Source: Nanobdellota archaeon (lineage in GTDB: Archaea; Nanobdellota; Nanobdellia; Woesearchaeales; SKGA01). From it: 64,000 nt of DNA. Made by a program: the position numbers and the translations under genes. Below the pieces are notes generated by a model. It saw nothing but the letters and a program-made list of their open reading frames with translations, made no database searches and was not told where the DNA came from. Shown here in pieces: positions 7,609 to 53,555 of the stretch. Location of the stretch: assembly GCA_051819805.1 (NCBI GenBank), contig JBNJHD010000002.1:63754-127753 (forward strand). The letters run 5' to 3'. Within the stretch, counting starts at the first letter, position 1. Each line of letters opens with the position of its first letter.

Positions 7609-7622
7609 TTTCCACTCGAAAT
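7609..7622 (+). repeat. ORB-like element copy 3 (GTTTCCACTCGAAA)
   Basis: It shares GTTTCCA..GAA with copy 1 and lies on the far side of the AT-rich DUE, inverted relative to copy 2. Confidence 0.35.
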
Positions 7623-16943: not shown

Positions 16944-17040
16944 GTACTAAAGAGTGAGTGTTGGTGATGGTTCTCGAAAGCTTTAAATATGATGGTGCTG
17001 CCTATTTTTATAATAACTATAGTTTGAAGCATACTGGTGT

Positions 17041-22148: not shown

Positions 22149-23030
22149 ATGAGAGCTCCAATAGCAAACAAGACGCACTATCCAAACGGCATTACGCTGC
22201 TTGATAAGACATTCGAACAACTCTTCAACCACGAGAAAGGTCCTGGTGCACTACCAATGAAACGAAGCCCTGGACTTTCGAAATCGAAAGCAAGCGTTGA
22301 GGACGTCAAAGCAGTCATCAGTCCACATGCTTCTTATGAATTGGCAGGACCATGCATGGCATGGAGCTACGGCGCTCTGGCAGAGAATGAACGACCGGAT
22401 ATCTATATCATCGTCGGACAAGCGCAAAAAAGCACTGGTGAAGGTCTATCCATGGAGACGTTCCAGACACCATACGGGGAAGTGAGAGTCGATCAGGAGT
22501 TCGCACGAGCACTGGTCGAGAAAAAACATATACTTCACAATGACAAGCTTCACCAGAAGGAGTCACTCATTGAAGTGCAACTACCTTTTTTGCAGTTCAT
22601 CAATAAACCAACTATAGAGAAAGTGAAGATACTTCCTCTATTTCTCAATACTGAAAGCAACGTCAAAGAACTAGCAGTCGATATCAAGGAAACGCTGCTC
22701 GATCAGAACAAGACGGCAAAATTCATCTTCGTCTCGAACATGACTTCATACGGACGGAGCTTCCATTTCGTACCATTCACAGAAGAAGTCAAAGAGAATA
22801 TCGCTGCAATCGACAAGAAGCTACTGCAGCCACTCAAAAGCTATGATGAAGAATGCTTCTTTGAACAAGTCAAGGAGACGATGGCACCGATATCAGGATA
22901 CAGCGCACTGCGATTATTTTTCAGGCTTTTCCAACCTAATACTATTGATCTCAACCAGTACTATCTTTCTGGAGAAATCAATGATGATTTCACCACGACG
23001 GTGAGTTTTGCCAGTGTCGTACTCCGCTGA
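22149..23030 (+). CDS. Memo-like protein (AmmeMemoRadiSam system protein B family)
   Basis: VISPHASYELAGPCMAWSYGAL and the hallmark HQKESLIEVQLPFLQF match the conserved EHS-E-QLPFL motif of the MEMO1/UPF0103 family. Confidence 0.65.
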   Translation: MRAPIANKTHYPNGITLLDKTFEQLFNHEKGPGALPMKRSPGLSKSKASVEDVKAVISPHASYELAGPCMAWSYGALAENERPDIYIIVGQAQKSTGEGLSMETFQTPYGEVRVDQEFARALVEKKHILHNDKLHQKESLIEVQLPFLQFINKPTIEKVKILPLFLNTESNVKELAVDIKETLLDQNKTAKFIFVSNMTSYGRSFHFVPFTEEVKENIAAIDKKLLQPLKSYDEECFFEQVKETMAPISGYSALRLFFRLFQPNTIDLNQYYLSGEINDDFTTTVSFASVVLR

Positions 23031-26723: not shown

Positions 26724-29700
26724 GTGTGTCGTGTGGTGAAAAAACAATTATTCATATCTCTAGGGCTCTTAACACTAGTATTCGTTCTATTCTCAACAAT
26801 TGTTACAGCAGACATCTGCGTTCCATCATACATCGATATTGATGGAGTGTCAGGCACACAACAGACACTATCATACCCTCAAAGTAATAGCTGTCCGCCG
26901 ATGCACGAGTTAGTGGAAGGAGACTTGAGAGAGGATAAGGAAACACTTGAAAGGACTTCTTGTTGTTGCGATTGTTCTGACGATTATGAAGTTCTGCGTT
27001 TTGGCGCACCAAGTGGTTATGAACACCTTGTTTCAACAACGTACTGCACTGAAAAAGGTTTTGATGTAGGAGTTACAGATGAAACTAATTGCACCATTTC
27101 ATGTAAGAATGAATGTGATGGCAATCAACAAGTTCTTATCGAAGAATCAGATCTCTACCATGTTGTTTCAGGATATGTCTTTAGTGCAGCAGATAGTGAT
27201 CCTCTTGCCAACATTTCCGTATTCGCCCTCGATCAAGGAGATGACGTGATTGTGGAAGCGAAGACGGATGCAGAAGGTTTCTATAACTTAAGCTCAGTAC
27301 CTGGAGTTCAGAACGGAGAGAATAAATTCTTGGCAATGACATCATCAACTCACGAATTAACATGCGAGGATAATATTGAGAACGTGGAATTAACAGAAGA
27401 TACTGAACTGAACTTCACGATGAGCAGTTGTCAACAAAATCCTGATTATTGTATGCCTGACTGGGAAATCGGAGAGTGGGGCGAATGCAAACCATACTTC
27501 AGCCAAGGATTCGATGGTCAATACATGCAGAGAAGATCGGTGATAGACCTCAATGAATGCGACAGATCATCAGGAAAACCGGAAAACTGGAGACTCTGCG
27601 AAGGAACAGTAGTTATGCCCAACTGCGGCAATGGGGAACTTGAAGAAGGTGAATTCTGTGATCCTGCAACACAAGAAGGAAGTGAGATCTTCAAATTACC
27701 TGATGGTGATACTGTCACTCAAGTCACATGCAAAGATATTCTTGGAGAAGGATACAGCGATGATGAACTGATAACCTGCACGGATACATGCAATTATAAT
27801 TATGATTCATGCACGCCTGTTTGTGGTTTCTACTGTGACCGGAAAGAAGAATGCGCTATGGAAGAATGCGAATCACTCTGTGAAGGAGAACCACTGTGCG
27901 GCAACGAGTGCGAGGGACAAAAACCAGTATTTCTTCCAGTCAACGATAGTGTGGACTTTTCAACAACGAGAAACATCTTCGACTTGTACAATACTACTGT
28001 CTTAGCGCCAGATCACTATCCAGGAATCAGATATTTCGATCAATCAACAGATGTAGAACTCACATGGAGGTTCAACGGAACTTGTGAAGATGAGATTCTC
28101 GCATATCAAGTGGTCTATTGCGAAGAAAATGCACGCTCACAAGAATGCCAAGGAGATACTCGCCAGAAAATCGAAGTGCCGAAAGGACAATTCCAATATT
28201 TGGTTGAAGGAATTCTTGAACCAAAAACATCCTATTGCTACAATGTCTGTGCTATCCAACGAGATGGAAGCACAAGCTGTGCGTATGAAGAAGGCTCGCT
28301 TCCTTGTTTCAACTCCGGAGAAGAGTATTGCATGGAAGAACACCCACCAGGGTATAACTGCGAAGAACACGATGATGGTGAATACGCACCAACAGGATGT
28401 CTTATAAAAGAATTCAAAGGGTACGGGAGAGAACCAATCTCATTTACCAATCATAGTTATGAAGTGGCAGTGACTTGCGAGCAAGGAGAAGTCTGTGTCG
28501 AAACAGAATATGATCCTCTTAACGATGGAGGTGGCGAGAAATTAGGAGCAATGTGCAAAGCACCGCTCAACTGCAGCACCTGCAATGGTATGTTCGGTCT
28601 ATACAGTTCAGTGCCGGGAAAAAGAATAACATATACAAACGATAATGATCAAGAAAAAAAAGTATCATGTAACAAGTTCATCAATCCAACTCCAGAACAA
28701 TTCTCGACGAACTGGGCAGGTCTTTGTTATTATGACACGTCACGAACATCATTTGACTACTTCGATCAATGTATGAAAGTAGATTCTTGTTATGATTATA
28801 AATCAGAACAAGCTTGCGCTAACGATCCTTGTAATAAGATGGATGGTGCTTGCCAATGGAGTTTTTATTCTGAAGAATCAGGGATTGGTGTGTGCAAACC
28901 AATCGACGAGCAATATGAAGAGTGCGGACGATGTGATGCTGATTCTCCGCTAGGATTCTGCAATGAACATATTTGTGAGAACAACTATGGGAACTGTTAT
29001 TATCGAGAACCTTCAAAAAATACTATTGATCAATCAGAAGAGAATATACTCGTATCACTTCTAGGGATATCGTACCAAAACGAACGTTATGATGATGAAC
29101 TAATACCGACTTGCATCAACAAGAAAGATATGGCTTGCCATCTCTATCAAAATGAGAAGGATTGTATCAACGATTCAGCAAATACATCTATTGATGTGAC
29201 CTATGAAGGAATGACTCCTCTATATGGAACTAATGAGTTGATGTTCGCATCACAAGACAGGTATGGGTTCGGTAGATGCGCATGGTCGGAAAGTGAAGAT
29301 GAACCTGATTTCAGTGGTTGTCACAAGAATTCTGATAACCGATATAACGACTCATTATCGTGGTCAGGTTTTACGCAAGGTGATTGTTACTCCACAGCAT
29401 ATTCTTCAGATCTTCGATGCTTACAGGATGTAACTCCACCAAATACTATGCTCATATTACGAAAACCACCGCAAAATCAGAACTACCTAGGACTTCCCAC
29501 TTACGGTATCAATGAGTTGGCGAATCTCACCTTCAGTGTCGATGACGATACTTGGGCAGCAGATGAGTCCACAACGTACTTCTCAATATTATCAGAACAA
29601 GAATGTCCTGCAGAGTGCTATGATTTTACCTGCAATAACATGAATGATCAAGAATGCATTAGAACGGCGAATAATTGTAAAGAACAAGGATGCGGAGTAT

Positions 29701-30896
29701 ATCCTACAACTCTATTGACGGATATGATACAACCAGCATATCAAGATAAATCAATAGCTCATGGAGTTCATAAGCTCAAATATTTCTCCATGGATCCTGC
29801 GAAAAATATTGAAGTAATCAATTCAACAGAACTATTTATCGATAGCACTGCTCCGGAAATATATTTTGATCGAGAAGAAGATCTCAATATATCAACATTC
29901 AGACTTCACGACATTTATCTTAGCAACGTCACTATCAATTTCAAAACTTCAGAACAGGCACACTGTCATTACGAGATGACATATATATCGTCTTCAGGAG
30001 AAGAACTCACTTATGGACCTGATGATATGGAACGAGTCAATGATACGTTTGAAGCGAACTATCGGTTCGTGCCTGATAATTTCTATAACTTCACCATAGT
30101 CTGTGAAGATGAGTATAAGAACAGGGCAAGAATGTCAATACCATTATGGGTTGAAGGAGATGTCTCCATATCAAGAGCTCAACCGAAATGGAAGGTGTAC
30201 AATGCAGACCAAATAGAAGATATTCTTCTTTCACTCCACACACTGGATGAAGCGAACTGCAGATTCGATCCTGAGAATCCTACTTATGATCAATCACGCT
30301 ACAGCTTCGCACCCACAAATCAAAGCACATATCATGTGAAATTATTCACTGAGTTCGTCAATGATCTCGCACCGCAAAATGTTGAAGGAGTCTACTCCTA
30401 TTACACTGCGTGCAATTATACGAACAGGACACTCACAGAAGGTTTGCTCTCGGATATGATATTTTTCTCCATAGATGTGACTGGTCCAGAAACACAACTT
30501 TTTTACTTGAAAAACAATGATTATGAATTATTCCACGAAACAGGAAATGATGCTACTCCACGAGCATCAGAACGATCCATTAAAATATTCTGCGATGATT
30601 CCAATGGGCAACTTCCAGGAACAACTTTCGGCTGTAAAGAAATCCATTATTGTTATAGTGATAGTTCAATTCTTGACCTTACGGACTTCAATCCAGAAGA
30701 AGATTGTGAAAACGGAGAACTATTAAGCACTCATGGAGAACCATACTTTGAAGATACTTTGGATTTCACTACAGATACGAATAAGAAGTTATACTTCTAC
30801 GGTATTGATAATGGAGGAAATGAAGGAGATCTTCATAGGAAGAACTTGAAAGTGATCGACACGAATTTCACACGACCAATATTTACAGTCATCTGA
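26724..30896 (+). CDS. giant (1390 aa) Cys-rich secreted protein (Sec-type signal)
   Basis: GTG start. Signal peptide LFISLGLLTLVFVLFSTIVTADI, abundant CxxC and CCC motifs and an EGF-like cysteine spacing. Confidence 0.6.
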   Translation: MCRVVKKQLFISLGLLTLVFVLFSTIVTADICVPSYIDIDGVSGTQQTLSYPQSNSCPPMHELVEGDLREDKETLERTSCCCDCSDDYEVLRFGAPSGYEHLVSTTYCTEKGFDVGVTDETNCTISCKNECDGNQQVLIEESDLYHVVSGYVFSAADSDPLANISVFALDQGDDVIVEAKTDAEGFYNLSSVPGVQNGENKFLAMTSSTHELTCEDNIENVELTEDTELNFTMSSCQQNPDYCMPDWEIGEWGECKPYFSQGFDGQYMQRRSVIDLNECDRSSGKPENWRLCEGTVVMPNCGNGELEEGEFCDPATQEGSEIFKLPDGDTVTQVTCKDILGEGYSDDELITCTDTCNYNYDSCTPVCGFYCDRKEECAMEECESLCEGEPLCGNECEGQKPVFLPVNDSVDFSTTRNIFDLYNTTVLAPDHYPGIRYFDQSTDVELTWRFNGTCEDEILAYQVVYCEENARSQECQGDTRQKIEVPKGQFQYLVEGILEPKTSYCYNVCAIQRDGSTSCAYEEGSLPCFNSGEEYCMEEHPPGYNCEEHDDGEYAPTGCLIKEFKGYGREPISFTNHSYEVAVTCEQGEVCVETEYDPLNDGGGEKLGAMCKAPLNCSTCNGMFGLYSSVPGKRITYTNDNDQEKKVSCNKFINPTPEQFSTNWAGLCYYDTSRTSFDYFDQCMKVDSCYDYKSEQACANDPCNKMDGACQWSFYSEESGIGVCKPIDEQYEECGRCDADSPLGFCNEHICENNYGNCYYREPSKNTIDQSEENILVSLLGISYQNERYDDELIPTCINKKDMACHLYQNEKDCINDSANTSIDVTYEGMTPLYGTNELMFASQDRYGFGRCAWSESEDEPDFSGCHKNSDNRYNDSLSWSGFTQGDCYSTAYSSDLRCLQDVTPPNTMLILRKPPQNQNYLGLPTYGINELANLTFSVDDDTWAADESTTYFSILSEQECPAECYDFTCNNMNDQECIRTANNCKEQGCGVYPTTLLTDMIQPAYQDKSIAHGVHKLKYFSMDPAKNIEVINSTELFIDSTAPEIYFDREEDLNISTFRLHDIYLSNVTINFKTSEQAHCHYEMTYISSSGEELTYGPDDMERVNDTFEANYRFVPDNFYNFTIVCEDEYKNRARMSIPLWVEGDVSISRAQPKWKVYNADQIEDILLSLHTLDEANCRFDPENPTYDQSRYSFAPTNQSTYHVKLFTEFVNDLAPQNVEGVYSYYTACNYTNRTLTEGLLSDMIFFSIDVTGPETQLFYLKNNDYELFHETGNDATPRASERSIKIFCDDSNGQLPGTTFGCKEIHYCYSDSSILDLTDFNPEEDCENGELLSTHGEPYFEDTLDFTTDTNKKLYFYGIDNGGNEGDLHRKNLKVIDTNFTRPIFTVI

Positions 30897-35683: not shown

Positions 35684-36205
35684 ATGAAATCACGGTCTGG
35701 ACAAATACAACAAGTATTCATCTACCTCGTAGCGATATTCATCATAGGAGCAATAGCTCTGATAGGAGCAAAATCGCTTTTCGGTATCATGGACCAGAAA
35801 GAACAAGTCGATTATCTCACATTCAAAGAGAATATCAAGAATGAAGTCGAAGATAATAATATTTATGGCACTATCAACGAACGCCGTTTCTCGGTTCCAG
35901 GATCGATGAAAAAGATCTGCTTTGTCGATACCGAAACTTTTTTTGAAGGTCTGGGCGCTGAACTTAAAAGAAACAGCTTTAATGCAGATACAGGTAATGA
36001 TGAGATTGACTTCATCATCCAGGATAGTGTTAGAGATGGTGTTAAAGCGAATATATTTCTTTCTGACGGTCAGACGGTTGTTCCTATCGGCTACTCAAAT
36101 AAAGTTCAAACTGATAAAGACATAACATGCATCAATAATACGAACGGATATTTCAACATAGTATTCAAAGGTCAAGGTCGTAAAACACTCATCCTTCCAA
36201 AATGA
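35684..36205 (+). CDS. class III signal peptide (archaeal pilin-like) protein
   Basis: MKSRSG|QIQQVFIYLVAIFIIGAIALIGA: a basic N-region, G/Q junction, then a hydrophobic helix. Confidence 0.55.
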   Translation: MKSRSGQIQQVFIYLVAIFIIGAIALIGAKSLFGIMDQKEQVDYLTFKENIKNEVEDNNIYGTINERRFSVPGSMKKICFVDTETFFEGLGAELKRNSFNADTGNDEIDFIIQDSVRDGVKANIFLSDGQTVVPIGYSNKVQTDKDITCINNTNGYFNIVFKGQGRKTLILPK

Positions 36206-36215
36206 ATACACTAAG

Positions 36216-37328
36216 ATGATTTCGATGAAACAACATCTGCTTGACGGACAAAAAGCTCAAATCCAACTACAATTCAATTGGATTTTTGTCATTATCATAG
36301 GCGCTGTTCTTCTAGGGTTCTTTTTCTCGCTTACTAGTACACAAACTACTGTTTCAGAACAAAGGATAACTGCAGCGACAGCTCGTCAGCTGGATACGAT
36401 AATAACATCCACTGCACAGAAATCAGGTACGTTCAAAAAATTCACCAATGTTCCCGAACGAGAGTTGACATTTTATTGTAATAGTAGAACAGGTCTGTAT
36501 CATTATGAAGTTGATGGTATTCGTGTGGGAACGACAAAACATGATGTTTTATTTACACCACATCAATTCACACCACTAGGGATATACACATGGACTCTTG
36601 ACTGGAGCATCCCATACAAGATGACGACATTCACTTACTTGACTCATGAAGATCATATGTTCATATTCTATGACGACAATCCTTCAGGATCAGCTGATGA
36701 TTTTGACCAGCTCTATGAACCCTTCCCAAAAAATATGACTCATGTTGTCTATAATAAGAGTACAATTGCTGATTTTTCACAGGATAGGCTCAATTATAAT
36801 GACTATACGTATGTGTTTTTCAACAATCAAGATATACCTGAAGAACTCAAAAAAGGTATTCAAGGAGATAATGCTCTTGTCATCACGATAACACCTCAAA
36901 AAGCAGATGTTTTCTCCTACGGCAATGTAACTTTCATGAGTGGAGATGACTATTCAAGTAGTAGTGCTGGCGAGAACACACCATATTTCGGTAGAGCATC
37001 ACTGTATGGAGCACTCTTTTCAGGTTCAAAGCAATTATTCGAATGTAACATGGATAAAGCATACTCGTACATGCATATAGTGACACTCATGCAACTAGAT
37101 AGAGTCAATAGAGTTATTCCTTATGTAAATCCTACCTGCAATAGAGTATTAGGAGGAATCGATGATGGAATTCCACGAACAAGACAGCATCTAGGAAATA
37201 TTTCAGATATTCTCGCTGATGGTATCCGAACTCAAGAAGATGTCAAAACATTATATGATAAAACTCTTCTGGTTGAAGAGAGTAATTATAAACTGGCGAT
37301 GCAAGGGAACTGCCCTCTCATCTATTGA
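36216..37328 (+). CDS. class III signal peptide (pilin-like) protein, 370 aa
   Basis: ...DGQKA|QIQLQFNWIFVIIIGAVLLGFFF, sharing the K-A-Q-I-Q motif with its neighbours. Confidence 0.5.
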   Translation: MISMKQHLLDGQKAQIQLQFNWIFVIIIGAVLLGFFFSLTSTQTTVSEQRITAATARQLDTIITSTAQKSGTFKKFTNVPERELTFYCNSRTGLYHYEVDGIRVGTTKHDVLFTPHQFTPLGIYTWTLDWSIPYKMTTFTYLTHEDHMFIFYDDNPSGSADDFDQLYEPFPKNMTHVVYNKSTIADFSQDRLNYNDYTYVFFNNQDIPEELKKGIQGDNALVITITPQKADVFSYGNVTFMSGDDYSSSSAGENTPYFGRASLYGALFSGSKQLFECNMDKAYSYMHIVTLMQLDRVNRVIPYVNPTCNRVLGGIDDGIPRTRQHLGNISDILADGIRTQEDVKTLYDKTLLVEESNYKLAMQGNCPLIY

Positions 37329-37347
37329 TTGTTCATAAAACACGAAA

Positions 37348-37851
37348 ATGGTCCGTTTCACAAAAGCGCAAATTCAAGTCAGCGAGTCGATTTTCATAGT
37401 CATATTCATCCTTATCATCATCATTTTCGGAATTGTCTTTTACTCAGGAGCGCAAGAGGAAGAGACAAGAGAGAAACGAGCACGATTCGCTGAACTCGAG
37501 TCAATACAAGTGGCTCAGATAGCTTCATCAATTCCAGAGATTCAATGCTCGCTGACTAATGTCCAGAAACCATCTTGTTTTGAAATAGAGAAGATGGATT
37601 CTTTTATCAACATCACCGAAAACAAACGATCACTGACAAGAGAGTATTTTTTCTCGAAGTTAGGGAATACAAGACTTGTAGTGCGAGAAGTATATCCTGA
37701 AGAGAATGAATGGGTGCTCTATAATAACACGCTAGCAGACGATGTTACGCAATCAGGATTACCTGTATTGATTCCAGTCTCACTATATAAGGCAACCTCA
37801 GGAGAATACCATTATGGGGTCCTTTATATCACTAACTTCCAGAAGAAATAA
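37348..37851 (+). CDS. class III signal peptide (pilin-like) protein
   Basis: MVRFTKA|QIQVSESIFIVIFILIIIIFGIVFY. Confidence 0.5.
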   Translation: MVRFTKAQIQVSESIFIVIFILIIIIFGIVFYSGAQEEETREKRARFAELESIQVAQIASSIPEIQCSLTNVQKPSCFEIEKMDSFINITENKRSLTREYFFSKLGNTRLVVREVYPEENEWVLYNNTLADDVTQSGLPVLIPVSLYKATSGEYHYGVLYITNFQKK

Positions 37852-37866
37852 CGATGGAGTAATCAT

Positions 37867-38373
37867 ATGATACCAAGAAAAGCACAGCAAGAGATCATAG
37901 GACTTGTCATTATTGTTCTTATAGTTTCCATGGCAATGCTCATCTACCTTTCAAGCAAAGCTGAAGAAGCTGAAGAGAACCAAGGAGTAAATATCCACAA
38001 GGAATACGCGTATAACGAGCTTGCCATGAGCTTTCTTGATACTATTGTCGATACATCAGTGTGTAATGTGGATATAGATAAACTTGTCAGAGATTGCGGG
38101 TCAAGACAAGAGATTGTCTGTAGTGATGGCAAAACATCTTGTGAGAAGCTCAACGAGACAATAATAGATATAAAAAATAACACGTTGGACGTGTGGGGGA
38201 TGGCATATGGTCTTATCATCAATTATCCTGACACTAGTCCTGCGCCTGATTTTGAATATATACGTGATGATTGCACGAATGAAACAACTGGTCGAAGCGC
38301 TCCTGGTTGGATTCCAGTATCTCTTCACCCACAAGGAACAGCAATGATCGAACTTGGCATCTGTGAATCATAA
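37867..38373 (+). CDS. class III signal peptide (pilin-like) protein
   Basis: MIPRKA|QQEIIGLVIIVLIVSMAMLIYL. Confidence 0.5.
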   Translation: MIPRKAQQEIIGLVIIVLIVSMAMLIYLSSKAEEAEENQGVNIHKEYAYNELAMSFLDTIVDTSVCNVDIDKLVRDCGSRQEIVCSDGKTSCEKLNETIIDIKNNTLDVWGMAYGLIINYPDTSPAPDFEYIRDDCTNETTGRSAPGWIPVSLHPQGTAMIELGICES

Positions 38374-38483
38374 GCATTTATTTATAAATGAATGAAAAGT
38401 TTTAAATACTATTGTTGTGGAAATTTATATACTGTTATTGTAATATAGTCAACTTCGTGTTGATTGTGTGAGGTGTTTTTTAG

Positions 38484-38768
38484 ATGATACGAATGAACAG
38501 GAAAGGTTCCGAACTTTCTATGAATGTGATAATTATAGCAGCAATAGCTCTGCTTGTCCTTGTTATCCTAGCGGTCATGCTACTCCAGAAAGGAGGAGAT
38601 ATACAGGAAGGAACGAGTTGTACAGGTCTAGGTGGAGAATGCTGCTCTAGCTGCGGAAACGCATGTGTAGTTGGTGGACAGAAATATTCCGTGCCACATC
38701 CTACTGGCGAATGTCCTTCTGGTCAGCAATGCTGCTTGAAATTAGGTGATGGAGACACAAACCGATAA
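38484..38768 (+). CDS. small (94 aa) Cys-rich pilin-like protein; candidate major pilin
   Basis: Canonical archaeal prepilin N-terminus MIRMNRKG|SELSMNVIIIAAIALLVLVILAVMLL. A short C-terminal domain with 8 Cys. It has its own TATA-like elements (TTTATTTATAAAT at 38377, AAATTTATATAC at 38422) in the only sizeable intergenic gap of the operon. Confidence 0.55.
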   Translation: MIRMNRKGSELSMNVIIIAAIALLVLVILAVMLLQKGGDIQEGTSCTGLGGECCSSCGNACVVGGQKYSVPHPTGECPSGQQCCLKLGDGDTNR

Positions 38769-41340
38769 GGTTCTCCACTTTTTTTCTTTCTTTCGAGGTG
38801 TGAAATTGGCAGGGCGATTACCAGATTCGAAACGAGCACTCAGCTCAATGGGAACAATAGGGAGTATAGTGATAGTACTCATCATCATCGCGCTTCTGCT
38901 ATTCACGCTTTCAGATGTTTTTGATAAGGCAGAGAAAGGAACGGACTGCGAAGCTATTGGTGGTGTATGGTCTGAAGATTGCAATAAAGATTTTCTTATG
39001 CAAGCAGTAGCTTTCGGCGAGAAAGACGATAAGATATGCTGCTTGAAAAACATAGGGCTTTCTGAGAGTGAAGAAGAGCAGTTCGAGAAATGGTATGAAC
39101 AACAAGCTCAAAGTAGCGGATCAGCACAGTCCGGAAGCCAGCAAGCACGACCTCTCACGTCAGACCAATTCAGTGAGACTCAAGAAGACATCTATATGAT
39201 GTTCAATAATGAGGGCTGGCAAGGGAGTATGACTCTTTCAGAAGCTTCAAACCCTGATAATCACATAACGATAGATCCGGATGACAAGAATACTTTTGCA
39301 GCAGTCAATAACGACCAAGATATCGAACGATGCACTATGGGAATATACCCTGCAGAACCATTTATCGGAGAAGAATTCCGGCGAGATGGTAATACTCCAG
39401 TCTCAGGATTCCAAGTCCAACACCAACCATGCAATATACGAACAGGCATGCAATTCATCGGTATTCTCACAAAAGAAGGTTATTACAAGTGGGATGTGGA
39501 GTTATTCGATGAGAAAGGAGAACGGACAGGTTCCGCTACACGGATCATCCATGTCAAGGAAGGGATATCCTCTCCTTCAGGAGAAGGTATCAAGCAAAAG
39601 ATACTACCTGAGATACGGATCGTTGCCGAAAACAATTTTCGTAAATGCTTCGTTTCAGCACGCGTCATGAACCAAAGCCTTGAAACAGGAAAATATTTCG
39701 GAACAACAACTCCTTCAATCATAAAAGGATATTTCCTAACTGATAAAGAGATAAAGCAAGCAGCAGAGGAAGGGAAAAATATCTGTCCACGCGATCGATC
39801 AACATACAATGAGCCTGTTGACTTCGCAAACGGATGGGATGATATTATTGTCGATTTCAACGAACGCTCTGATTTACACACTGCTTGTTTCTACTTCAAA
39901 GAGTCGGAAACCAGAACCACAACAGGTGCTGATGAACTAGTAACGCTCAATCAAGATAGTTGCGATACGATTGAAGTGATTGATTACAAGCTATTTGAAG
40001 AGATATTCTATGAATGCTCCTACGATTGCGAGATGTATAAGAATCAACAAGTTTCTTGTAATGATAGGGAGTCACGAAACGACAGATGCAGACTATCTCT
40101 AGACTGCGAATGGGAGCAAGGTTTGTTCAAGAAAAACACATGCACGAACTGTCATGAGGATTTCAGTTTTTGCAAGGATTATGATAATGAGGAAGCGTGC
40201 ACATCAAACCAATGTATCATAGATCACAGCTGCTATTGGGAATCAGGTTTTCCGAAAGGAGAATGTAAGGACTGTGATGAGACTCCATCATGTAACGATT
40301 ATAACAGCAGTAAAGCTTGCGAGTCAAACCCTTGTGGTGTTGCAGGTGGAGAGGAAGGAATCTGTTCATGGGAAGATGGTGAATGTAAACTGGACTTGTC
40401 AGCTAGTGGTGGAGACAGCATGAAAACCTGCGATGAGATGAATCGGGGAGAATGTGAAGGAGCACAAGGCTGTCTCTGGGATGCAGCGTTTTTTGGCGGA
40501 GAATGCCAAGATTGTGCCGAGAGAGGAATTGATGATTGTGATTCCTACCCTGACAAAAATGCTTGTAAGCAAGATTATTGCAACATCGAATGCCAATGGG
40601 AAGGAAATGGGTTGTTCAGCTCTGGAGAATGTAATCCTGATGGTTTTTGCGAATCGGATGATGATTGCAACGAAGGCGAAATTTGTCATCAAGGAAAAAA
40701 CCGATGCAAGAAACCTAATGAAGAGATTGATACTGATCAGTTCAATGATCAAGATCCTGATGAAGATGTAGCTACAGAGAATTGTGTTGAGCACGGATGT
40801 GATTTTTCAACTGAACGAAAATGTCTTAGTGAAGGAGGAAAAGACTGTAAGGGTGTTCTAGGCTGTTACTGGATTGCAAATGTAGGTGGTCTTAGTGGAA
40901 GCGAATATTGTCAATCCTGTTCTTCGATCACTTCATGCAGTGATTACAAATACATGTATCCGTGTGACACTAACGAATGCTCTAATGTCAATGATAATTG
41001 TTTCTGGAATCCAGATGAGAATACTGCCTCGGGCAATTATTGTCAATCATGTAATGATATTATGATGTGTAATGATTATATTTCCGAATCAGCCTGTAAC
41101 AGGGATGCTTGTTCAATAGAATATGATTGCATGTGGAATCCTGACTCTCCAGAAAACATTTACGGTGATGGTTGTGTCAATTGCGCTAGGATGACTTGTC
41201 ACGACTATACTACTCAATCACTATGTGAGGAGAATTCATGCGGACTGAATGGCGACCTTGGTTGTGGATGGTCTCAGGATGGTTGTGAACAAGTAATCAG
41301 TGATAGTATTCCTCCCGACTCCGATAGTGCGAATGTCTGA
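38746..41340 (+). CDS. 864-aa pilin-like/surface protein with a C-terminal array of Cys-rich modules
   Basis: N-terminal KRALSSMGTIGSIVIVLIIIALLLF (the start could instead be ATG 38848). The N-terminal module GTDCEAIGG...KICCLK is paralogous to the preceding 94-aa protein. Residues about 450-860 hold more than 8 tandem C-x2-C...C-x-DY...AC-x-N-C...W-x...C modules. Confidence 0.5.
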   Translation: MMETQTDKVLHFFSFFRGVKLAGRLPDSKRALSSMGTIGSIVIVLIIIALLLFTLSDVFDKAEKGTDCEAIGGVWSEDCNKDFLMQAVAFGEKDDKICCLKNIGLSESEEEQFEKWYEQQAQSSGSAQSGSQQARPLTSDQFSETQEDIYMMFNNEGWQGSMTLSEASNPDNHITIDPDDKNTFAAVNNDQDIERCTMGIYPAEPFIGEEFRRDGNTPVSGFQVQHQPCNIRTGMQFIGILTKEGYYKWDVELFDEKGERTGSATRIIHVKEGISSPSGEGIKQKILPEIRIVAENNFRKCFVSARVMNQSLETGKYFGTTTPSIIKGYFLTDKEIKQAAEEGKNICPRDRSTYNEPVDFANGWDDIIVDFNERSDLHTACFYFKESETRTTTGADELVTLNQDSCDTIEVIDYKLFEEIFYECSYDCEMYKNQQVSCNDRESRNDRCRLSLDCEWEQGLFKKNTCTNCHEDFSFCKDYDNEEACTSNQCIIDHSCYWESGFPKGECKDCDETPSCNDYNSSKACESNPCGVAGGEEGICSWEDGECKLDLSASGGDSMKTCDEMNRGECEGAQGCLWDAAFFGGECQDCAERGIDDCDSYPDKNACKQDYCNIECQWEGNGLFSSGECNPDGFCESDDDCNEGEICHQGKNRCKKPNEEIDTDQFNDQDPDEDVATENCVEHGCDFSTERKCLSEGGKDCKGVLGCYWIANVGGLSGSEYCQSCSSITSCSDYKYMYPCDTNECSNVNDNCFWNPDENTASGNYCQSCNDIMMCNDYISESACNRDACSIEYDCMWNPDSPENIYGDGCVNCARMTCHDYTTQSLCEENSCGLNGDLGCGWSQDGCEQVISDSIPPDSDSANV

Positions 41341-41490
41341 AACCAAACCAGTCTTATCGAAACTAGTGATGTATAATGAAATGTATTCGAGAACTATACA
41401 AAAAAGCAATTATGAACGAGACTGTTATTATCATATTCTCAATACTATTATTCATAGCAGTAGCTGCAGCAATCATGAAGGTGAGATCGA

Positions 41491-42174
41491 ATGTTTTCGG
41501 GTAATAAGAAAGGATTCGATACTTGGCAAATCATTACTATAACTGTAGCAATCATCACCTTGATAGCTATTTCAAGTATATGGAATCAAGCTCATGGTTC
41601 AGTCAAAGAATCCTTTGATGGAGTCGCATGCAGAGCCACAATCCACGCTCACGATATCACAGACACAGTATTCACTCCAGGTATTGAAAAAAGCTGCGCG
41701 ACAAGAGAACGACGAATATCACTCAAGGATAAGACGAAAGACGACTTGATCAAAGAACTGGAGAAACTCATGGCAAACTCTTGGTTGATGGTCAATGAAG
41801 GTCGATCAGATGACCTTTGGGAAGAGGATGCTCCTTTGAAAAAAGCAGGCTACTCATGCATGGCAACAGATCACATCTTTTTCGAGGATGTCGATAAGAG
41901 AGATTTCGAAGAAGAAATGATCACCCCTGAAGAGATAAGAGCACATATGAAAGAATCATATAAGAATGACGATTACACGTATCACATGTATATACAAGGG
42001 CATGGTGGTGTAGGAACGTACAAGATAACAGACAATGTGACTTTCAATAATGAATATATAATTTCAATAGCAAGTCCTCACTTCAATATATTCACACGAG
42101 AAGACGAGTTTGCAACAGGACTCATCTTGAGCTCGCTTGAAACAGGAAAACAGATAGGGTGTAAGCTAGTATGA
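41491..42174 (+). CDS. class III signal peptide (pilin-like) protein
   Basis: MFSGNKKG|FDTWQIITITVAIITLIAISSIW. Confidence 0.5.
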   Translation: MFSGNKKGFDTWQIITITVAIITLIAISSIWNQAHGSVKESFDGVACRATIHAHDITDTVFTPGIEKSCATRERRISLKDKTKDDLIKELEKLMANSWLMVNEGRSDDLWEEDAPLKKAGYSCMATDHIFFEDVDKRDFEEEMITPEEIRAHMKESYKNDDYTYHMYIQGHGGVGTYKITDNVTFNNEYIISIASPHFNIFTREDEFATGLILSSLETGKQIGCKLV

Positions 42175-47717: not shown

Positions 47718-48352
47718 GAGGAAAAAAGGCTCAACACGAGATGGATCTCACTTCCCTAGCTGCAGGTCTTGTCTTCATTATAATAGCATTCATCATATTT
47801 TCGCAAGTTGCTGATAATATCAGAATGAGTAGTGAAGAAAGAACTCTCCAAGAGGAAATGGAGCTAGGAGTTTCCAGGCACTTAAGAACGTTGCTTGAAT
47901 CCCCTGCAGATTATCAGGGATCGAAAGTGAAAGTTTCAGAACTCATACAGGATTATTACTATTATTATCTTCAGCAAGAAGAAGATGTTTGCGAGATACA
48001 TAGTTGTAGTGATCACATGATTCTCATAAAAAAATCAATACAAGAAAGTGTTGATCATTCATCAAGACTACTTGAAGGAAACAAGGATATCAATACATAT
48101 CTGATGAAAGCAGACGATCCTGAGATAACGCTAGGGGAAGTCACGTATGATGTAGATCCCCACTCTCGAAGTTGCAGCAGAAATGACGATGAGTCTTATT
48201 ATTGTGTTGGAGGAACTGTCTTCTCCTCTGACGCAGTGTTTTTACCATTACGAACTCACGAGTCACTTTCAGGATATGATGAGTATGTTATTGTGTTCGT
48301 CTTCGGACTTTATGACGTTGAAGCACAAGCCAGTTACTCGAAAATCGTTTGA
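47714..48352 (+). CDS. class III signal peptide (pilin-like) protein
   Basis: ATGA overlap; MRGKKA|QHEMDLTSLAAGLVFIIIAFIIF shares the K-A-Q motif. Confidence 0.45.
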   Translation: MRGKKAQHEMDLTSLAAGLVFIIIAFIIFSQVADNIRMSSEERTLQEEMELGVSRHLRTLLESPADYQGSKVKVSELIQDYYYYYLQQEEDVCEIHSCSDHMILIKKSIQESVDHSSRLLEGNKDINTYLMKADDPEITLGEVTYDVDPHSRSCSRNDDESYYCVGGTVFSSDAVFLPLRTHESLSGYDEYVIVFVFGLYDVEAQASYSKIV

Positions 48353-48363
48353 ACACTAAAAAA

Positions 48364-51300
48364 ATGAAATCGCACATGAAAAGCTCAAAAAAAGGAGTTT
48401 CACTCCTACTATCAAGTATATTCGTTTTACTGATGGTCATAGGAATCATATTAGCAGTCTATAATCCTGACGAGCAGATAGATATAGGGTCTAAACAATA
48501 TCAGGTACTGATTTCAAACGAGAAAGCCTCAGCGATTGATTTATTCATCAAGCAAGCTTTCAAGTTATCTTCTGACTATTCAGTCGATATATTTTTTCAC
48601 AACAATGGTGTATTCAACGAAGAGACTGAAGACGGAGAACACACTGAACACCAATGCGGAAAATACCTCGCACCTCTATTTTTCAAGTCCTCGGAGGATC
48701 CTGATGCATGTTTTCCTGATTTCAGAGATAATTTTAAAGCTTATCTCGGTACAGACTTCAATAAGAAACTTCTCACATATCCTGAAATAGATCTTTATTT
48801 CAATCCAGAAATATTCATCGGAGAACAAAATGACTTCATAACATGCGATGGTTCTTCATCACTAGCACAAACTTATATTGAGCGGTCAAACAAGGAAGCA
48901 TGGAATACAGGTGGAAAAACTTATCTCGAAACCGCTTTTGAGGTGGCAGCTGACACAGGTGCTGACCCTGCTTTACTTCTCGCCCATGCATCAATGGAAA
49001 GTGCTATGGGTGAAGATAATACGTGCACAAATCAAGGAAAGAGTTCTCTGACAGGCTGCGGTTGGCTTCCAACTTGTTCAAAAGACTGCGGTTGTGAAGA
49101 TACACGCGGTTATTTCGAATCAGACACTAGCCAATTCCAATGCACAGCTCGTGTCGATAAGGCTGCGTTCGCAGGGGAAGGATCGTATGAGAAATGCACA
49201 CCATATAGAGATAACCCTGAACTGCTTTTCAATTGTGTCATGTGTGTTTATCAAGGAAATTATGATACTGTCATTCCAGGAGGTGGAGAAAAATACTTTA
49301 CAAAAGATGATACATGCCGTTATGCAGAAATCGTTTCATCATTATATTGTGGTTGGAATAAGTATCTGTCTCAAGAATACGAGGAAGAAATTCTTAGCGA
49401 TGATAAAGTAAGCTCATTTGTCTCAATGGAAACAGAAGAAGCTATTGAGATACCTATACTGACTCAATCCGAGCTACGATCAGATATCAACCGAAAATCA
49501 TATCCTAACGGTCTGCTCGGAGGGTTCCAGAACGAACGAATAATACCTTGCGGTTCTTCAACGTGCTTAGCAGATATTGCCGAATACTATCATAGTCTTT
49601 ACAGGCAGTATCCGTATGTGTGGGGAGGAGAATCACCATACTCATATCAGGATACAAAACCATTAACTGAAGAACAAGATTCGGTATTCTACAAAGTTTC
49701 AGTGACAAGAAAGCAACCTGAAAAAGTCGCATTCACAGAACCAGGATTCGACTGTTCAGGATGGGTCTGGTGGGTCGCTTCACATTCAAGTGCACAACCA
49801 CTCAGCATACGAAATGATGCGGAAGGCTTTTACAGGATGTTACAGAAATCAACGGATGCACAACCTGTTTGTGATAAAGAAAACGAGAAATCCTGTTCAA
49901 AAGAGACTATTATCAATAACGCACAACCAGGAGATATCTTATTCTACAAAGGACTTCATGATCCTAAAGTAACTCATATCATGATCTATCTCGGTGAAGG
50001 AGTCATCAGTCACTCTCGAGGATCGAAAGGTCTTGTCAAAGAAGATATTCCACCATCATACACTAATAACATACAAGCAGTTTACCATCTCAAAGGATCG
50101 GCATTCAGTGGAACTCACGATTCACTTGACTCCTACTTCAAGAATAGCGATGAAGAGTTATCCGAGTCAAAAGGTTCTTGTGTCTTACCAATTGATTTCA
50201 CGCAAATCAATGAAGAAGCTATAGATTCGACAAGAGTATCTTTTGAAGAACTCCAGGAAACAATCATTAAGAACGATCTTGAACAGACCATTCAGGAAGC
50301 GTCCAAAAAATACCGTATTCCAACAGCATATATCAAGGCGATAATCACGACAGAAGTAGGTGGATCGAAATATCTCGATAAATACTTATCAGGAGAAACA
50401 ACAATAAGCGAGAGCAATATGAGAGGTCCGATGCAATTATCACGTGTGGCTTGCGATACTCTAAATGATGCAGAAGCTGATTCGTGCGACCTCAAAGTTA
50501 TAGAGAAAGGTGATGTGGAAAACGCGATCATGACTTCGACCAGATTCATAGCGCACCTCAGGGACACGACACAATATATTGACAAGAACAATCCGGATTA
50601 TTACATGTTATCGCTAGCTTACAATGCAGGTCCGGGAAGCCTGAAATATATTCTAGAAACTGCAAGCAAGAGAACAGGAATACATCCTGAACAACTACAA
50701 TGGAGAGATATCACTTATAATGACATACAAAACGGGCTCAAAGACACAGGTAAAGATTGGGCTGATGATGAAGACAAATGGAAAGAAGTCCGAGAATATC
50801 CTAATCTTGTCGCTCAATCACTCTCTGAGCAGTGTCTAGGTAATCCTTTGCTACCGAAGACAAGAAGCAGTATCCGATTAGAACCACAAGCTTATGCTAC
50901 TGTCAATATAGATTTCAATCTATTAGAAACGATTGAAGAATTCACAATTTCGCTACAATCATGCAATGATGATCTTGACGTTTGCGTTTCAGAAAAGACT
51001 GATGAGTTCAACCAAGAGTTCTATGATGTTGAAGTTATCGATACAGCTAACGAACTTGACAGGCATTCAACTCCTCAGGATTCAAAAATAATCCGTTCAG
51101 GAGTATATCTTACTGAACTCTCTTCTCAAGATACGAAATCAAGTAATGATGTGTTTGCAATGAATTTCCTTAAACAACTGATTGACTGCTCAACTAATTC
51201 CCAATCAGGATGTGTTTGCATGATAAATTCAAATACTTCAGAATTGCAAGCTGAACAAGTGACATTGAAACTTGCGTGGAACGAACGAAGCTACCAACCA

Positions 51301-52998
51301 GCATCCGAGGCAAACATTTATGTCAATGGAAAACCAAAAGGTTCAATTTCACTTCTCCCACTGAACTTGTTCAAGGAAGATGAACGCTCCGTTGCACCGA
51401 AAGACATAACATTCACCTTCACTAAGAAAAACATTATTATTGAAACATCATCTGGTTTTGAACAGACTATCTCACCGAATCAACAACTAGCAACACTCAA
51501 ACATTTCTCGCTTCAAGATTATACTACTAAGAGTCATCCTTATGATCGCTCACTTATCAACATCAACAAGTATGAACGTTCAACTTCGGCAATGGACTAT
51601 CAAAGCCAGTCACTTGATTTATCAGGTTTGTTTTTTGATAATTCCGATCAAAATCTGCCTTCAGGATCATTTGACCAGTTCTATAATGATGAATTGAAGA
51701 ATTTTATGAAGTTAACGAGAGATGATAAAGAAACATCTGATCGCTGCACGCAAGTCGTCTCCTATGCCCAGAGATATCTAGGTTCGGGATATGGCGGAAC
51801 GGGAGTGTGCACTGCAGAACAAGCTGAACGAGAAGAATGCACTACACAATGCGGATCGTATGTCACTAACGTATTCAGGGAGATTTTTGATGAGGTGCTT
51901 CTGGGTAATGGCAACCAAAAATGCGAATCTGCAGAGTCTGTCAGCGCCAACAGATTCACCAATCCTGAATTGCTTAGAGCAGGAGATATATTCTCTTCAG
52001 ACGGACGATCAGATGCTGCACAGAAATATGGTCACACAGGAATATATGTCGGTAAAGGTTTCGTTTCAGAACCAGCACGTGATTCATCATGGGGAACATA
52101 CTCGTACAAGAGATTCACTCCAGATCCGAACGGAGAGCATGTGTTTATCCATTCTATAGGACCAGTTTCATATAATACTTTATCACAACTCATTTCAGAG
52201 GATAAGCAGGCGAGAAACATCATCAGCTTCTGTAGATATGAACCATGTAAGGAACAAGATGATCCTATCAATGGTTTTGATGTCAAGAGTGGAATGACAC
52301 TATTCTCTTACGAAAAGGATGAGAATGAAAATCATGCTCCATTTATCTGCAGGGATAATTCAGATACTTATCTTTTCAGAACAGAATTTCCTCAGATGCC
52401 TGGAAAAACGATTGATTTCGCTGCAGAACTGAATGACACTGTCGCGCCTGAAACGATCATACAACAATCTGCAAATCAAGCTTCATGCGCATCCAGTCCT
52501 GCTATCATCTTCTCATGGAAAGATGATACGGAACATCTTTATGGGTATAATATCACTGTATGGGCAGAAAATGATAATGAAGATGAAGGAATATCATACA
52601 TCGTACCTCTCACTCATGCTGAATACGCTGATACGAAACCAGAAAACCCGAAGACACTCCACAAGCCTTTCATCACTCAAGATAGTAAGGTGAAAACGTA
52701 TCATTATATGATAGGAAACATCAACAATATACCTTTATTCAAGATCAACACCACTTACTCCTATAAGATAACTCCTTTGGACAATCATTTCAACAGTCCG
52801 CAATCAAGCGATATAGGCAGTATCACTCTCCGTGATTCTGATGAAGCGATAGGACAATTATCAACTATACTATTCCAAGATTCGACACTTTTTGATCTCT
52901 ATTCAACTACTAAAGATCTGTTCAAAGGAGAATGCTCCAATTATCTGGAAGAACTAGCGGAGCAACGAGAAGAAGTACTGGGTGAGATGAGCTCATGA
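48364..52998 (+). CDS. giant (about 1545 aa) multi-domain cell-wall hydrolase with a class III-type signal: N-terminal lysozyme-like region, NlpC/P60 peptidase, GH23/SLT lytic transglycosylase and a second NlpC/P60/CHAP-like domain
   Basis: The ORF-track start 48349 is a TTG overlapping the upstream stop; the first ATG is at 48364 (MKSHMKSSKKG|VSLLLSSIFVLLMVIGIILAV). NlpC/P60 #1: YPYVWGGESPY...GFDCSGWVWWV...GDILFYKG...HIMIYLGEGVISHS (about 49560-50040). SLT: IPTAYIKAIITTEVGG...GPMQLSRVA...LSLAYNAGPGSLKYIL (about 50290-50700). Second NlpC/P60-like: RYLGSGYGGTGVCT...GDIFSSDGR...GHTGIYVGKG...EHVFIHS (about 51740-52170). An additional ...LLLAHASMESAMGED E-S region sits at about 48850-49100. Confidence 0.7.
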   Translation: MKSHMKSSKKGVSLLLSSIFVLLMVIGIILAVYNPDEQIDIGSKQYQVLISNEKASAIDLFIKQAFKLSSDYSVDIFFHNNGVFNEETEDGEHTEHQCGKYLAPLFFKSSEDPDACFPDFRDNFKAYLGTDFNKKLLTYPEIDLYFNPEIFIGEQNDFITCDGSSSLAQTYIERSNKEAWNTGGKTYLETAFEVAADTGADPALLLAHASMESAMGEDNTCTNQGKSSLTGCGWLPTCSKDCGCEDTRGYFESDTSQFQCTARVDKAAFAGEGSYEKCTPYRDNPELLFNCVMCVYQGNYDTVIPGGGEKYFTKDDTCRYAEIVSSLYCGWNKYLSQEYEEEILSDDKVSSFVSMETEEAIEIPILTQSELRSDINRKSYPNGLLGGFQNERIIPCGSSTCLADIAEYYHSLYRQYPYVWGGESPYSYQDTKPLTEEQDSVFYKVSVTRKQPEKVAFTEPGFDCSGWVWWVASHSSAQPLSIRNDAEGFYRMLQKSTDAQPVCDKENEKSCSKETIINNAQPGDILFYKGLHDPKVTHIMIYLGEGVISHSRGSKGLVKEDIPPSYTNNIQAVYHLKGSAFSGTHDSLDSYFKNSDEELSESKGSCVLPIDFTQINEEAIDSTRVSFEELQETIIKNDLEQTIQEASKKYRIPTAYIKAIITTEVGGSKYLDKYLSGETTISESNMRGPMQLSRVACDTLNDAEADSCDLKVIEKGDVENAIMTSTRFIAHLRDTTQYIDKNNPDYYMLSLAYNAGPGSLKYILETASKRTGIHPEQLQWRDITYNDIQNGLKDTGKDWADDEDKWKEVREYPNLVAQSLSEQCLGNPLLPKTRSSIRLEPQAYATVNIDFNLLETIEEFTISLQSCNDDLDVCVSEKTDEFNQEFYDVEVIDTANELDRHSTPQDSKIIRSGVYLTELSSQDTKSSNDVFAMNFLKQLIDCSTNSQSGCVCMINSNTSELQAEQVTLKLAWNERSYQPASEANIYVNGKPKGSISLLPLNLFKEDERSVAPKDITFTFTKKNIIIETSSGFEQTISPNQQLATLKHFSLQDYTTKSHPYDRSLININKYERSTSAMDYQSQSLDLSGLFFDNSDQNLPSGSFDQFYNDELKNFMKLTRDDKETSDRCTQVVSYAQRYLGSGYGGTGVCTAEQAEREECTTQCGSYVTNVFREIFDEVLLGNGNQKCESAESVSANRFTNPELLRAGDIFSSDGRSDAAQKYGHTGIYVGKGFVSEPARDSSWGTYSYKRFTPDPNGEHVFIHSIGPVSYNTLSQLISEDKQARNIISFCRYEPCKEQDDPINGFDVKSGMTLFSYEKDENENHAPFICRDNSDTYLFRTEFPQMPGKTIDFAAELNDTVAPETIIQQSANQASCASSPAIIFSWKDDTEHLYGYNITVWAENDNEDEGISYIVPLTHAEYADTKPENPKTLHKPFITQDSKVKTYHYMIGNINNIPLFKINTTYSYKITPLDNHFNSPQSSDIGSITLRDSDEAIGQLSTILFQDSTLFDLYSTTKDLFKGECSNYLEELAEQREEVLGEMSS

Positions 52999-53555
52999 AA
53001 TCACAAGCAATGATTCTAGTAGCATTACTGCTTTCTATACTTCTCGTGTCCAGTCCTGTTCTTTCTCTCGATTGCGTGAAAGGTATAGATGGGTACTGTG
53101 ATGAAGCTTGCCGTGAAGTCGACTTCGATTGCGCTTCAAATCCTAATCTCGAAGCAAAAATCCAAACAGATCTTGAAAAAAATGATTCAACTCCCCGACA
53201 GGATCCTTATAGGGAAATTCATGCTTCAGACACACTTATTCTCATAGGAACAAAAACAATTCCTGAATACGAAGCAAGGAAACCAACAAACGATCATATC
53301 AACGAGAATATGGGTGTGTTGCTTTTAGCGATCGCAATATCTCTCATTTTTATCAGTATAACACTCCTTATCATTCACCGTATGGAACTCAAACAAGGAG
53401 ACGATACGAGGATTCTGGAGAATATGAAATTCCACATCAAACGGCTCAGGCGCCACGGTCATTCCGATGAGGATATCAAGAAGATGTTTCTCCATAAGAA
53501 CCACCATTCCAGAATGATCGATAAGGCGTTTAAAGCACTGGAAAAACAGGCATAA
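52995..53555 (+). CDS. bitopic membrane protein (Sec signal plus C-terminal TM); last gene of the operon
   Basis: ATGA overlap with the giant hydrolase gene. Signal MILVALLLSILLVSSPVLSLDC, a CxxxxxC motif, TM GVLLLAIAISLIFISITLLII and a basic tail. Confidence 0.45.
   Translation: MKSQAMILVALLLSILLVSSPVLSLDCVKGIDGYCDEACREVDFDCASNPNLEAKIQTDLEKNDSTPRQDPYREIHASDTLILIGTKTIPEYEARKPTNDHINENMGVLLLAIAISLIFISITLLIIHRMELKQGDDTRILENMKFHIKRLRRHGHSDEDIKKMFLHKNHHSRMIDKAFKALEKQA

Follow-up and report, generated by a model that had tools for sequence, protein, structure and literature searches.

A small pilin-like protein with a beta-defensin-like head, a candidate for the major subunit of a filament resembling a type IV pilus in a Woesearchaeota-type DPANN archaeon

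In bacteria, type IV pili (T4P) and type II secretion systems (T2SS) combine a single major pilin with four core minor pilins and one large tip protein (FimU-PilVWX-PilY1; GspG with GspH-K). In the archaeon M. maripaludis, the major pilin EpdE (MMP1685) is a protein of 74 amino acids (aa) with Gln at position +1, and the genes for the ATPase and the platform lie at a separate locus (PMC3875500); pilin genes that stand apart from their machinery are normal in both M. maripaludis and Haloferax (PMC3875500). Among the DPANN archaea, which live attached to other cells in a manner that is largely unknown, conserved CpaF/TadC loci have been described in Woesearchaeota and Pacearchaeota (PMC11291902), and the Epd-like system 1 of the type IV filament (TFF) systems has been reported (preprint 10.64898/2026.04.22.720090). 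In this study, we analysed a stretch of 64,000 nucleotides (nt) from a Nanobdellota archaeon (contig JBNJHD010000002.1 of assembly GCA_051819805.1, positions 63,754 to 127,753; hereafter the window) and, within it, a gene for a 94-aa, Cys-rich, prepilin-like protein that an initial annotation had picked out as a candidate major filament subunit. On account of its sequence architecture, the conservation of its promoter and the synteny of its locus, we consider with moderate confidence that this gene encodes the major subunit of an Epd/Flp-like type IV pilus-like filament. Two elements are new with respect to the initial annotation, namely the likeness of the C-terminal head to beta-defensins and the size of the family to which the protein belongs.

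The gene lies in a single same-strand cluster of about 36 kb (from about 17041 to 53555) that encodes giant surface proteins and many small proteins in which a basic N-terminal motif is followed by a hydrophobic helix. Its features, all on the plus strand, are as follows.

38374..38483, plus strand: intergenic promoter region of 110 nt, GC 24.5%, the largest non-coding gap of the cluster
38401..38408, plus strand: TATA box 1, TTTAAATA, an exact TTTAWATA with an A-rich 5' flank resembling a B recognition element (BRE); predicted transcription start site (TSS) near 38431
38424..38431, plus strand: TATA box 2, TTTATATA, an exact TTTAWATA; predicted TSS near 38454
38470..38475, plus strand: Shine-Dalgarno (SD) sequence GAGGTG, 8 nt 5' of the ATG
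38484..38768, plus strand: gene for the 94-aa prepilin-like protein, including the stop codon (open reading frame (ORF) and translation)
38484..38507, plus strand: class III signal-peptide leader MIRMNRKG, with cleavage predicted after Gly8 from family statistics
38508..38585, plus strand: hydrophobic helix with which the mature protein is predicted to begin, SELSMNVIIIAAIALLVLVILAVMLL (AlphaFold2 (AF2) model and family conservation)
38610..38747, plus strand: beta-defensin-like disulfide head, G43 to G88, with six core Cys (46, 53, 57, 77, 83 and 84) and the additional pair 54 and 61
38779..38793, plus strand: T-tract, a TTTTTTTCTTTCTTTC-like run 10 nt past the stop codon, a candidate archaeal oligo-T terminator or attenuator

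The TSS positions were placed by the usual archaeal distance from TATA box to TSS, and termination at the T-tract is likewise a prediction.

The coordinates of the gene and its Cys content were exact in the initial annotation: the ORF at 38484-38768 encodes MIRMNRKGSELSMNVIIIAAIALLVLVILAVMLLQKGGDIQEGTSCTGLGGECCSSCGNACVVGGQKYSVPHPTGECPSGQQCCLKLGDGDTNR, with eight Cys at positions 46, 53, 54, 57, 61, 77, 83 and 84, and a protein on a 129-kb contig of a Nanobdellota metagenome-assembled genome (MAG) is 100% identical to it. The 94-aa protein belongs to a very large family that lacks functional annotation. A word-seeded search returned 259 relatives of 75-158 aa, most of them 80-100 aa, from MAGs of Woesearchaeota and Nanoarchaeota, and an exhaustive HMMER search of 1.84 billion representatives returned 3087 clusters at 50% identity with E<=1e-3 and 839 with E<=1e-10. 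The best 150 matches of the exhaustive search all measure 73-117 aa and align end to end, and no Pfam domain was carried by the family members that this search recovered. The label 'DUF948' that NCBI attaches to a family protein was rejected, since it reflects a sub-threshold match to a transmembrane segment (16.6 bits against a cut-off of 37.2). The contigs of loci L006, L008, L015 and L077 and of protein P0008, which carry family genes, are labelled 'uncultured Methanosarcinales', 'Alphaproteobacteria' or 'Bacteroidota' despite archaeal promoters and the same synteny, and are probably mislabelled or misbinned DPANN contigs.

The N-terminus of the family is the architecture expected of class III (prepilin) signal peptides, as had been proposed for the window protein. 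The consensus reads x-K-K-[GA]-[QSAVT]-[GE]-[LI]-S-M-N-V-I-I-I-A-A-I-A-L-L-V-L-V-I-L-A-V. Across 111 members, position -1 is Gly in 59% and Ala in 38% (97% together), Lys or Arg occupies position -2 in 97% and position -3 in 93%, the leader mostly measures 4-8 aa, and the core of the helix, SMNVIIIAAIALLVLVIL, is almost invariant within a hydrophobic stretch of about 22 residues. Glu is not present at +5, a residue that is not required in the pilins of Sulfolobus or Haloferax (PMC3875500); Asn stands at +6 in 108 of the 111 members, the window protein has Glu at +2, and a few members carry SME. The 94-aa protein had also been called the most canonical prepilin of the cluster, a description that we do not retain because it is a minority variant with Ser at +1 (KG|SELSMN, found in 11 of 111 members, against the family consensus KK[GA]|QGLSMN) and because its four upstream neighbours carry cleaner K[GA]|Q sites. 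In the AF2 model of the protein (mean predicted local distance difference test (pLDDT) score 77), residues 7-43 form a helix that reaches a pLDDT of 97, and four strands are predicted, which make up a beta head after the helix. Between 124 representatives of the exhaustive search, pairwise identity is 70% over the 23-residue helix and 30% over the head (20% when the shared Cys are left out); a conserved helix joined to a variable head is the usual pattern of pilins, to which this family would conform.

The promoter was compared across relatives by scanning one genome per species, which yielded 78 loci with family genes; as controls for the promoter counts we took the 1002 genes of these loci that encode 100 aa or more. 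The 130 nt upstream contain an exact TTTAWATA in 60 of the 74 distinct family genes with sufficient flanking sequence (81%) and in 60 of the 1002 controls (6%; Fisher p = 1e-50). Family genes that lack an exact box are mostly the second copies of tandem pairs, or have a box with one mismatch. When the sequences are aligned on the box, the 5' flank is BRE-like, with C or A at -7, G at -6 and A at -4, -3 and -1. SD sequences of the GAGGT type precede 65 of 77 family genes, as compared with 14% of the crudely called control genes, and a run of at least five T within 40 nt past the stop codon follows 38% of family genes and 15% of controls (p = 4e-6). The median gap upstream of family genes is 100 nt (n=71). 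The family gene is therefore predicted to carry a dedicated consensus BRE/TATA promoter, a strong SD and a downstream T-tract, and the initial observation of a small gene with its own promoter is confirmed as a motif pattern far beyond chance once relatives are compared.

In the window itself, both of the TATA-like boxes noted initially in the 110-nt gap are exact matches to the archaeal consensus. TTTAWATA occurs exactly only 8 times in the 64 kb, and shuffling the gap's own bases gives a probability of 0.0024 for two or more exact boxes at its composition. Both boxes and their 23-nt spacing are kept in the window and in L001, L006 and L007, within a spacer that otherwise has large indels. 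Box 1 is likely the counterpart of the family-wide promoter, and box 2 is confined to a subclade comprising the window, L001, L006 and L007, the last three of which also share the T-tract at 38779-38793. The single further exact TTTAWATA of the 36-kb cluster, at 16982-16989 (TTTAAATA with a CGAAAGC flank), lies 52 nt 5' of the first cluster gene at 17041, so that the cluster appears to comprise two main transcription units. The description of the gap as the only sizeable one in the operon holds in part: its 110 nt make it the largest of the cluster once an unlisted 30-aa membrane mini-ORF, MNETVIIIFSILLFIAVAAAIMKVRSNVFG, is counted at 41412-41504, in the nominal 150-nt gap 41341-41490 before the gene at 41491, and other gaps of 62-97 nt are present. 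The C-terminus of this mini-ORF is kept in a called gene of 43 aa (L001:12809-12940). Transcript evidence was not found among short Logan contigs with family genes; these contigs appear to be genomic and not transcript-like, as all of them span neighbouring genes.

The short 8-Cys C-terminal domain noted in the initial annotation is present, and we find that it resembles proteins of the beta-defensin fold in Cys framework and sequence profile. Counts of Cys in 181 members are 4 (16 members), 6 (158) or 8 (7), with no odd counts, and in a later set of 128 representatives three sequences have 3 or 7 Cys. The framework C-x6-C-x3-6-C-x10-23-C-x5-6-CC occurs in 157 of the 181 members; the beta-defensin framework that we used as the test was C-x(4-8)-C-x(3-5)-C-x(9-13)-C-x(4-7)-CC. 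All 16 four-Cys members lack both the third and the last Cys, and all 157 six-Cys members that end in CC keep both. The 844-aa paralogue encoded downstream has lost its second and fourth Cys together, and the same holds for the related proteins of L001 and L068. These joint losses fit pairings of C3 with C6 and of C2 with C4, which leaves C1 with C5, and the resulting connectivity would be that of beta-defensins (C1-C5, C2-C4, C3-C6; PMC7203481). The head of the window protein would then pair Cys 46-83, 53-77 and 57-84, with 54-61 as the extra bond of the 8-Cys form, a form (extra C54 and C61) that is limited to the window's subclade.

A profile built from 54 heads and compared with all PDB sequences by hmmsearch gave 22 matches at E<=10, 21 of them to proteins of the beta-defensin fold, and a control profile of reversed sequences gave none at that threshold. 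The matches include tick carboxypeptidase inhibitor (TCI; 2k2z, E 4.6e-7; 3d4u, E 7.5e-6; 1zlh, E 3.4e-5), Defensin-BvL (E 0.007), human beta-defensin 1 (E 0.014) and platypus DLP-1 (E 0.015), with hBD3, BD106 and gallinacin-11 matching more weakly, and in the alignments the six Cys and the GGxC and GxxCC motifs are in register. Comparison with three PDB sequences by hhalign gave a probability of 96.7%, against 0.35% for the reversed set. When the 54 heads were scanned singly, 12 matched Pfam Inhibitor_I68 (best E 2e-4) and 5 matched beta-defensin models (best E 3.6e-3), with Defensin_beta matched by 3; as judged by E-value, the matches to Inhibitor_I68 and Defensin_beta are below the Pfam cut-offs, and the window's own head had no match in this single-sequence Pfam scan. 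AF2 places a small sheet of 3-4 strands in the head (pLDDT 66 for the head alone), and Foldseek searches with both AF2 models put hBD4, DLP-1, TCI and AvBD11 at or near the top (TMt up to 0.56), all with E>2 and hence non-significant.

The head measures about 50 residues and is acidic, with a median net charge of -3 (-2 in the window) and a charge of zero or below in 89% of members; N-glycosylation sequons are almost absent. A cationic antimicrobial role was rejected on account of this charge, and TCI-like inhibition through a C-terminal tail on account of the variable length of the tail after CC. A word-seeded search with the head only gave 45 candidates, of which 7 matched, all of them known members. 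At other loci, small downstream paralogues and modular proteins of 190-830 aa carry the head behind a class III-like N-terminus, and larger proteins with internal or tandem defensin-like domains are encoded at L016:10764-11948, L009:10687-12057, L048:2611-3729 and L021:10478-11047. The defensin-like domain thus acts as a mobile module in this group of archaea. According to a review, trans-defensins arose exclusively in animals, and a 2024 paper describes bacterial defensins as cis-defensins only; a report of a beta-defensin-like domain in archaea was not found in the literature searched. Since small disulfide domains converge easily, we treat homology of the archaeal and animal heads as unproven. 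That a beta-defensin (trans-defensin) fold is native to DPANN archaea, as the head of thousands of pilin-like proteins, and shares ancestry with the animal domains, down to the two-part layout of big defensins, seems to us quite improbable.

The neighbours of the gene are consistent with a filament locus. The two features of interest are on the same strand:

35684..38373, plus strand: four conserved pilin-like genes with N-termini of the K[GA]Q type (173, 370, 167 and 168 aa), candidate minor pilins
38806..41340, plus strand: modular paralogue of 844 aa with a TTG start and a class III-like KRA|L N-terminus, candidate minor or tip pilin

A gene for a large Ig-like protein (30928), the four pilin-like genes (35684, 36216, 37348 and 37867) and the family gene are collinear in this order on one strand in 27-48 of the 78 loci, even at tblastn E<1e-5, and [KR][GAS] with a Gln after it is retained by 95-100% of the orthologues of the four small genes. 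The 844-aa paralogue preserves the distance of 34 residues from the conserved Ser to the first Cys that is found in the 94-aa protein, has a degenerate head (E 2.3e-4 within the window) in which C2 is replaced by Trp, and continues into a long Cys-rich repeat extension with no Pfam match. Tandem family paralogues occur in 8 loci. Four pilin-like genes and a large paralogue around a small, separately promoted gene fit a layout of one major subunit with minor or tip subunits. The suggestion that the large neighbours are minor, tip or effector subunits agrees with this layout as regards candidate minor and tip subunits.

About 15 cluster proteins have class III-like N-termini, among them a 1549-aa protein (48349-52998) with the N-terminus SSKKG|VSLLL and the NlpC/P60, SLT and CHAP domains of peptidoglycan hydrolases; the related cluster of L003 encodes an SLT protein together with an M23 peptidase. 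The occurrence of murein hydrolases in a pilin-like cluster of an archaeon suggests that its host or prey is a bacterium. The products of the cluster genes at 26724, 30928 and 52995 have ordinary Sec-type signal peptides, and the K[GA]Q type therefore represents a distinct targeting class in the window organism. A very high Cys content marks many of the cluster's predicted extracellular proteins (26724-30896, 38806-41340 and 52995-53555), which implies extensive extracytoplasmic disulfide formation in a group that is mostly reported from anoxic habitats.

A major filament subunit is the best-supported reading of the 94-aa gene, resting on sequence architecture, promoter conservation and synteny, from which we infer cleavage, assembly and abundance of the protein. 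A prepilin peptidase would cut after Gly8, and machinery of the CpaF/TadC type encoded elsewhere in the genome would polymerise the protein, the helices packing in the filament core and the disulfide-locked heads forming its surface. The internal promoter, together with partial termination at the T-tract, may yield a molar excess over the minor and tip subunits and over the large enzymes with class III signals, and the filament may serve attachment to the host cell. The proposal of a candidate major filament subunit is thus upheld as regards its own promoter, its class III N-terminus and its size, the smallest of any pilin-like protein in the cluster; it gains nothing from pilin models or from assembly genes within 10 kb. 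Several observations weigh against it. No secretion ATPase, TadC/FlaJ platform or A24 peptidase is found among the proteins of the window, and a scan for Walker A secretion-ATPase and A24 peptidase motifs within 10 kb in the 78 loci recovered only an ABC ATPase. Against the PDB, a synthetic ATPase query returned FlaI, GspE and CpaF. An earlier preprint reported T4P components to be missing in DPANN genomes. Pfam and NCBIfam scans of the 94-aa protein and nine neighbours gave no real match, with no pilin or class III model (Class_IIIsignal, Pilin_N, N_methyl) at E<=1 and, for the 94-aa protein, only spurious transmembrane matches (DUF948, HemY_N); nor did the full-length profile find a pilin or archaellin for the helix in the PDB. 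Because the helix served in part to seed the searches, its near-invariance is to some extent a product of ascertainment, and a head-only hidden Markov model (HMM) run on the related loci recovered paralogues with more divergent helices. Finally, an uncleaved signal anchor would likewise begin with basic residues and continue into a long hydrophobic helix.

The last point leads to an alternative that we judge unlikely, that of a small type II membrane protein that forms no filament and whose uncleaved anchor holds the head at the cell surface, either in monomeric form or as an envelope component. Its charge arrangement satisfies the positive-inside rule, no pilin model matched, assembly genes are absent nearby, and the NCBI pipeline sees nothing but a transmembrane-like 'DUF948'; yet an anchor leaves unexplained both the 97% occurrence of Gly or Ala at -1 and the fixed leader of 4-8 residues. 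The sequence of the helix is also highly conserved, whereas anchors usually keep hydrophobicity only, and K[GA]Q is kept in four neighbouring families while other proteins of the cluster use ordinary Sec signals. In Sulfolobus, sugar-binding proteins with class III signals are assembled by small pilin-like Bas proteins, and by this precedent the 94-aa protein may instead be the scaffold of a short pseudopilus or bindosome-like assembly that exports or displays large proteins with class III signals, such as the 1549-aa hydrolase, with no long adhesive pilus. The roughly 15 class III-like proteins of the cluster, one of them with NlpC/P60, SLT and CHAP domains, and the M23 and SLT proteins of L003 speak for such an assembly. 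Sequence alone cannot tell a short assembly from a long one, but abundant filament subunits are the more usual setting for a dedicated strong promoter and for tandem paralogues, and we regard the short assembly as having only a small chance of being correct. Less probable still is a released defensin-like effector or TCI-like protease inhibitor in which the hydrophobic N-terminus merely provides export or membrane insertion. The head does match tick carboxypeptidase inhibitor and beta-defensins, cell-wall hydrolases are encoded in the same cluster, and big defensins likewise join a hydrophobic N-terminal domain to a beta-defensin domain (PMC7203481). Against this stand the acidity of the head, a tail after CC that varies in length, unlike the inhibitory tail of TCI, and the fact that the helix, not the head, is the most conserved part of the protein.

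Outside the candidate filament locus, the window carries archaeal replication and transcription genes, including those for TBP, MCM, Orc1/Cdc6, the small subunit of PolD and RPA. Next to orc1/cdc6 (5486-6703) is a non-coding, very AT-rich stretch of 1.1 kb (6704-7825; GC about 27% for 6001-8000) with numerous short repeats of AT-rich sequence, both direct and inverted; a replication origin is its probable identity. Within the surface-protein cluster, a Memo-like protein is encoded at 22149-23030 (Pfam E 6.6e-35). The 64 kb gave no match in Rfam or tRNA scans.

For DPANN archaea, whose attachment to other cells sets the context of this work, the evidence points to a pilus-like apparatus, conserved and separately promoted, of which the family would be the main subunit and whose genes lie alongside those for giant surface proteins and cell-wall hydrolases. 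This makes the family a concrete target for proteomics, antibodies and cryo-electron microscopy of the contacts between DPANN archaea and their hosts. Its head is the first archaeal sequence family found, in the literature searched, to match proteins of the beta-defensin fold, on the grounds of a significant, composition-controlled profile and of a predicted disulfide pairing supported by covariation. Be it homologous or convergent, the match has a bearing on the claim that trans-defensins originated in animals only.

Among the described systems, the Epd pilus offers close parallels. The family (80-95 aa) and EpdE (74 aa) are both very small prepilins with a short leader ending in Gly, and the family consensus shares Gln at +1; in both, larger minor pilins, which are candidates in the window, are encoded in a long operon, with ATPase and platform elsewhere in M. 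maripaludis (PMC3875500) and predicted to be so for the family. The family differs in having no match to Pfam Class_IIIsignal/DUF361, in Asn at +6 instead of Glu at +5, in the near absence of N-glycosylation sequons, in a head with three predicted disulfides where EpdE has no globular head, and in the position of the small gene inside the cluster of candidate minor pilins. Bacterial Flp/Tad pilins are of similar size, with a short leader and a mostly helical subunit, and machinery of the CpaF/TadC type is reported in the lineage (PMC11291902); the archaeal family lacks the Flp motif and Tyr at +6 and adds a disulfide head. The 844-aa neighbour, which keeps leader, helix and a degenerate head and adds a large C-terminal extension, is comparable to modular type IV pilins such as Streptococcus sanguinis PilB (PMC8179133), and differs in that its extension is a Cys-rich repeat region with no Pfam match. 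The collinearity of four small pilin-like genes and large surface proteins with one separately promoted small subunit may be seen as analogous to the bacterial T4P/T2SS layout, with which no sequence relationship was detected.

The head finds its counterparts among animal proteins. In the big defensins of horseshoe crab, bivalves and amphioxus, the N-terminal domain is soluble and globular and is freed by a furin-like cut, whereas the archaeal protein has a class III signal and a transmembrane-type helix at this position. With trans-defensins (TCI, vertebrate beta-defensins and platypus DLP-1), the head shares the pattern C-x6-C-x3-6-C-xn-C-x5-6-CC and the GGxC and GxxCC motifs. It is set apart from them by its archaeal host, by its fusion to a pilin-type N-terminus, by an acidic instead of a cationic charge and by a C3-C4 loop that is longer than in the animal proteins.

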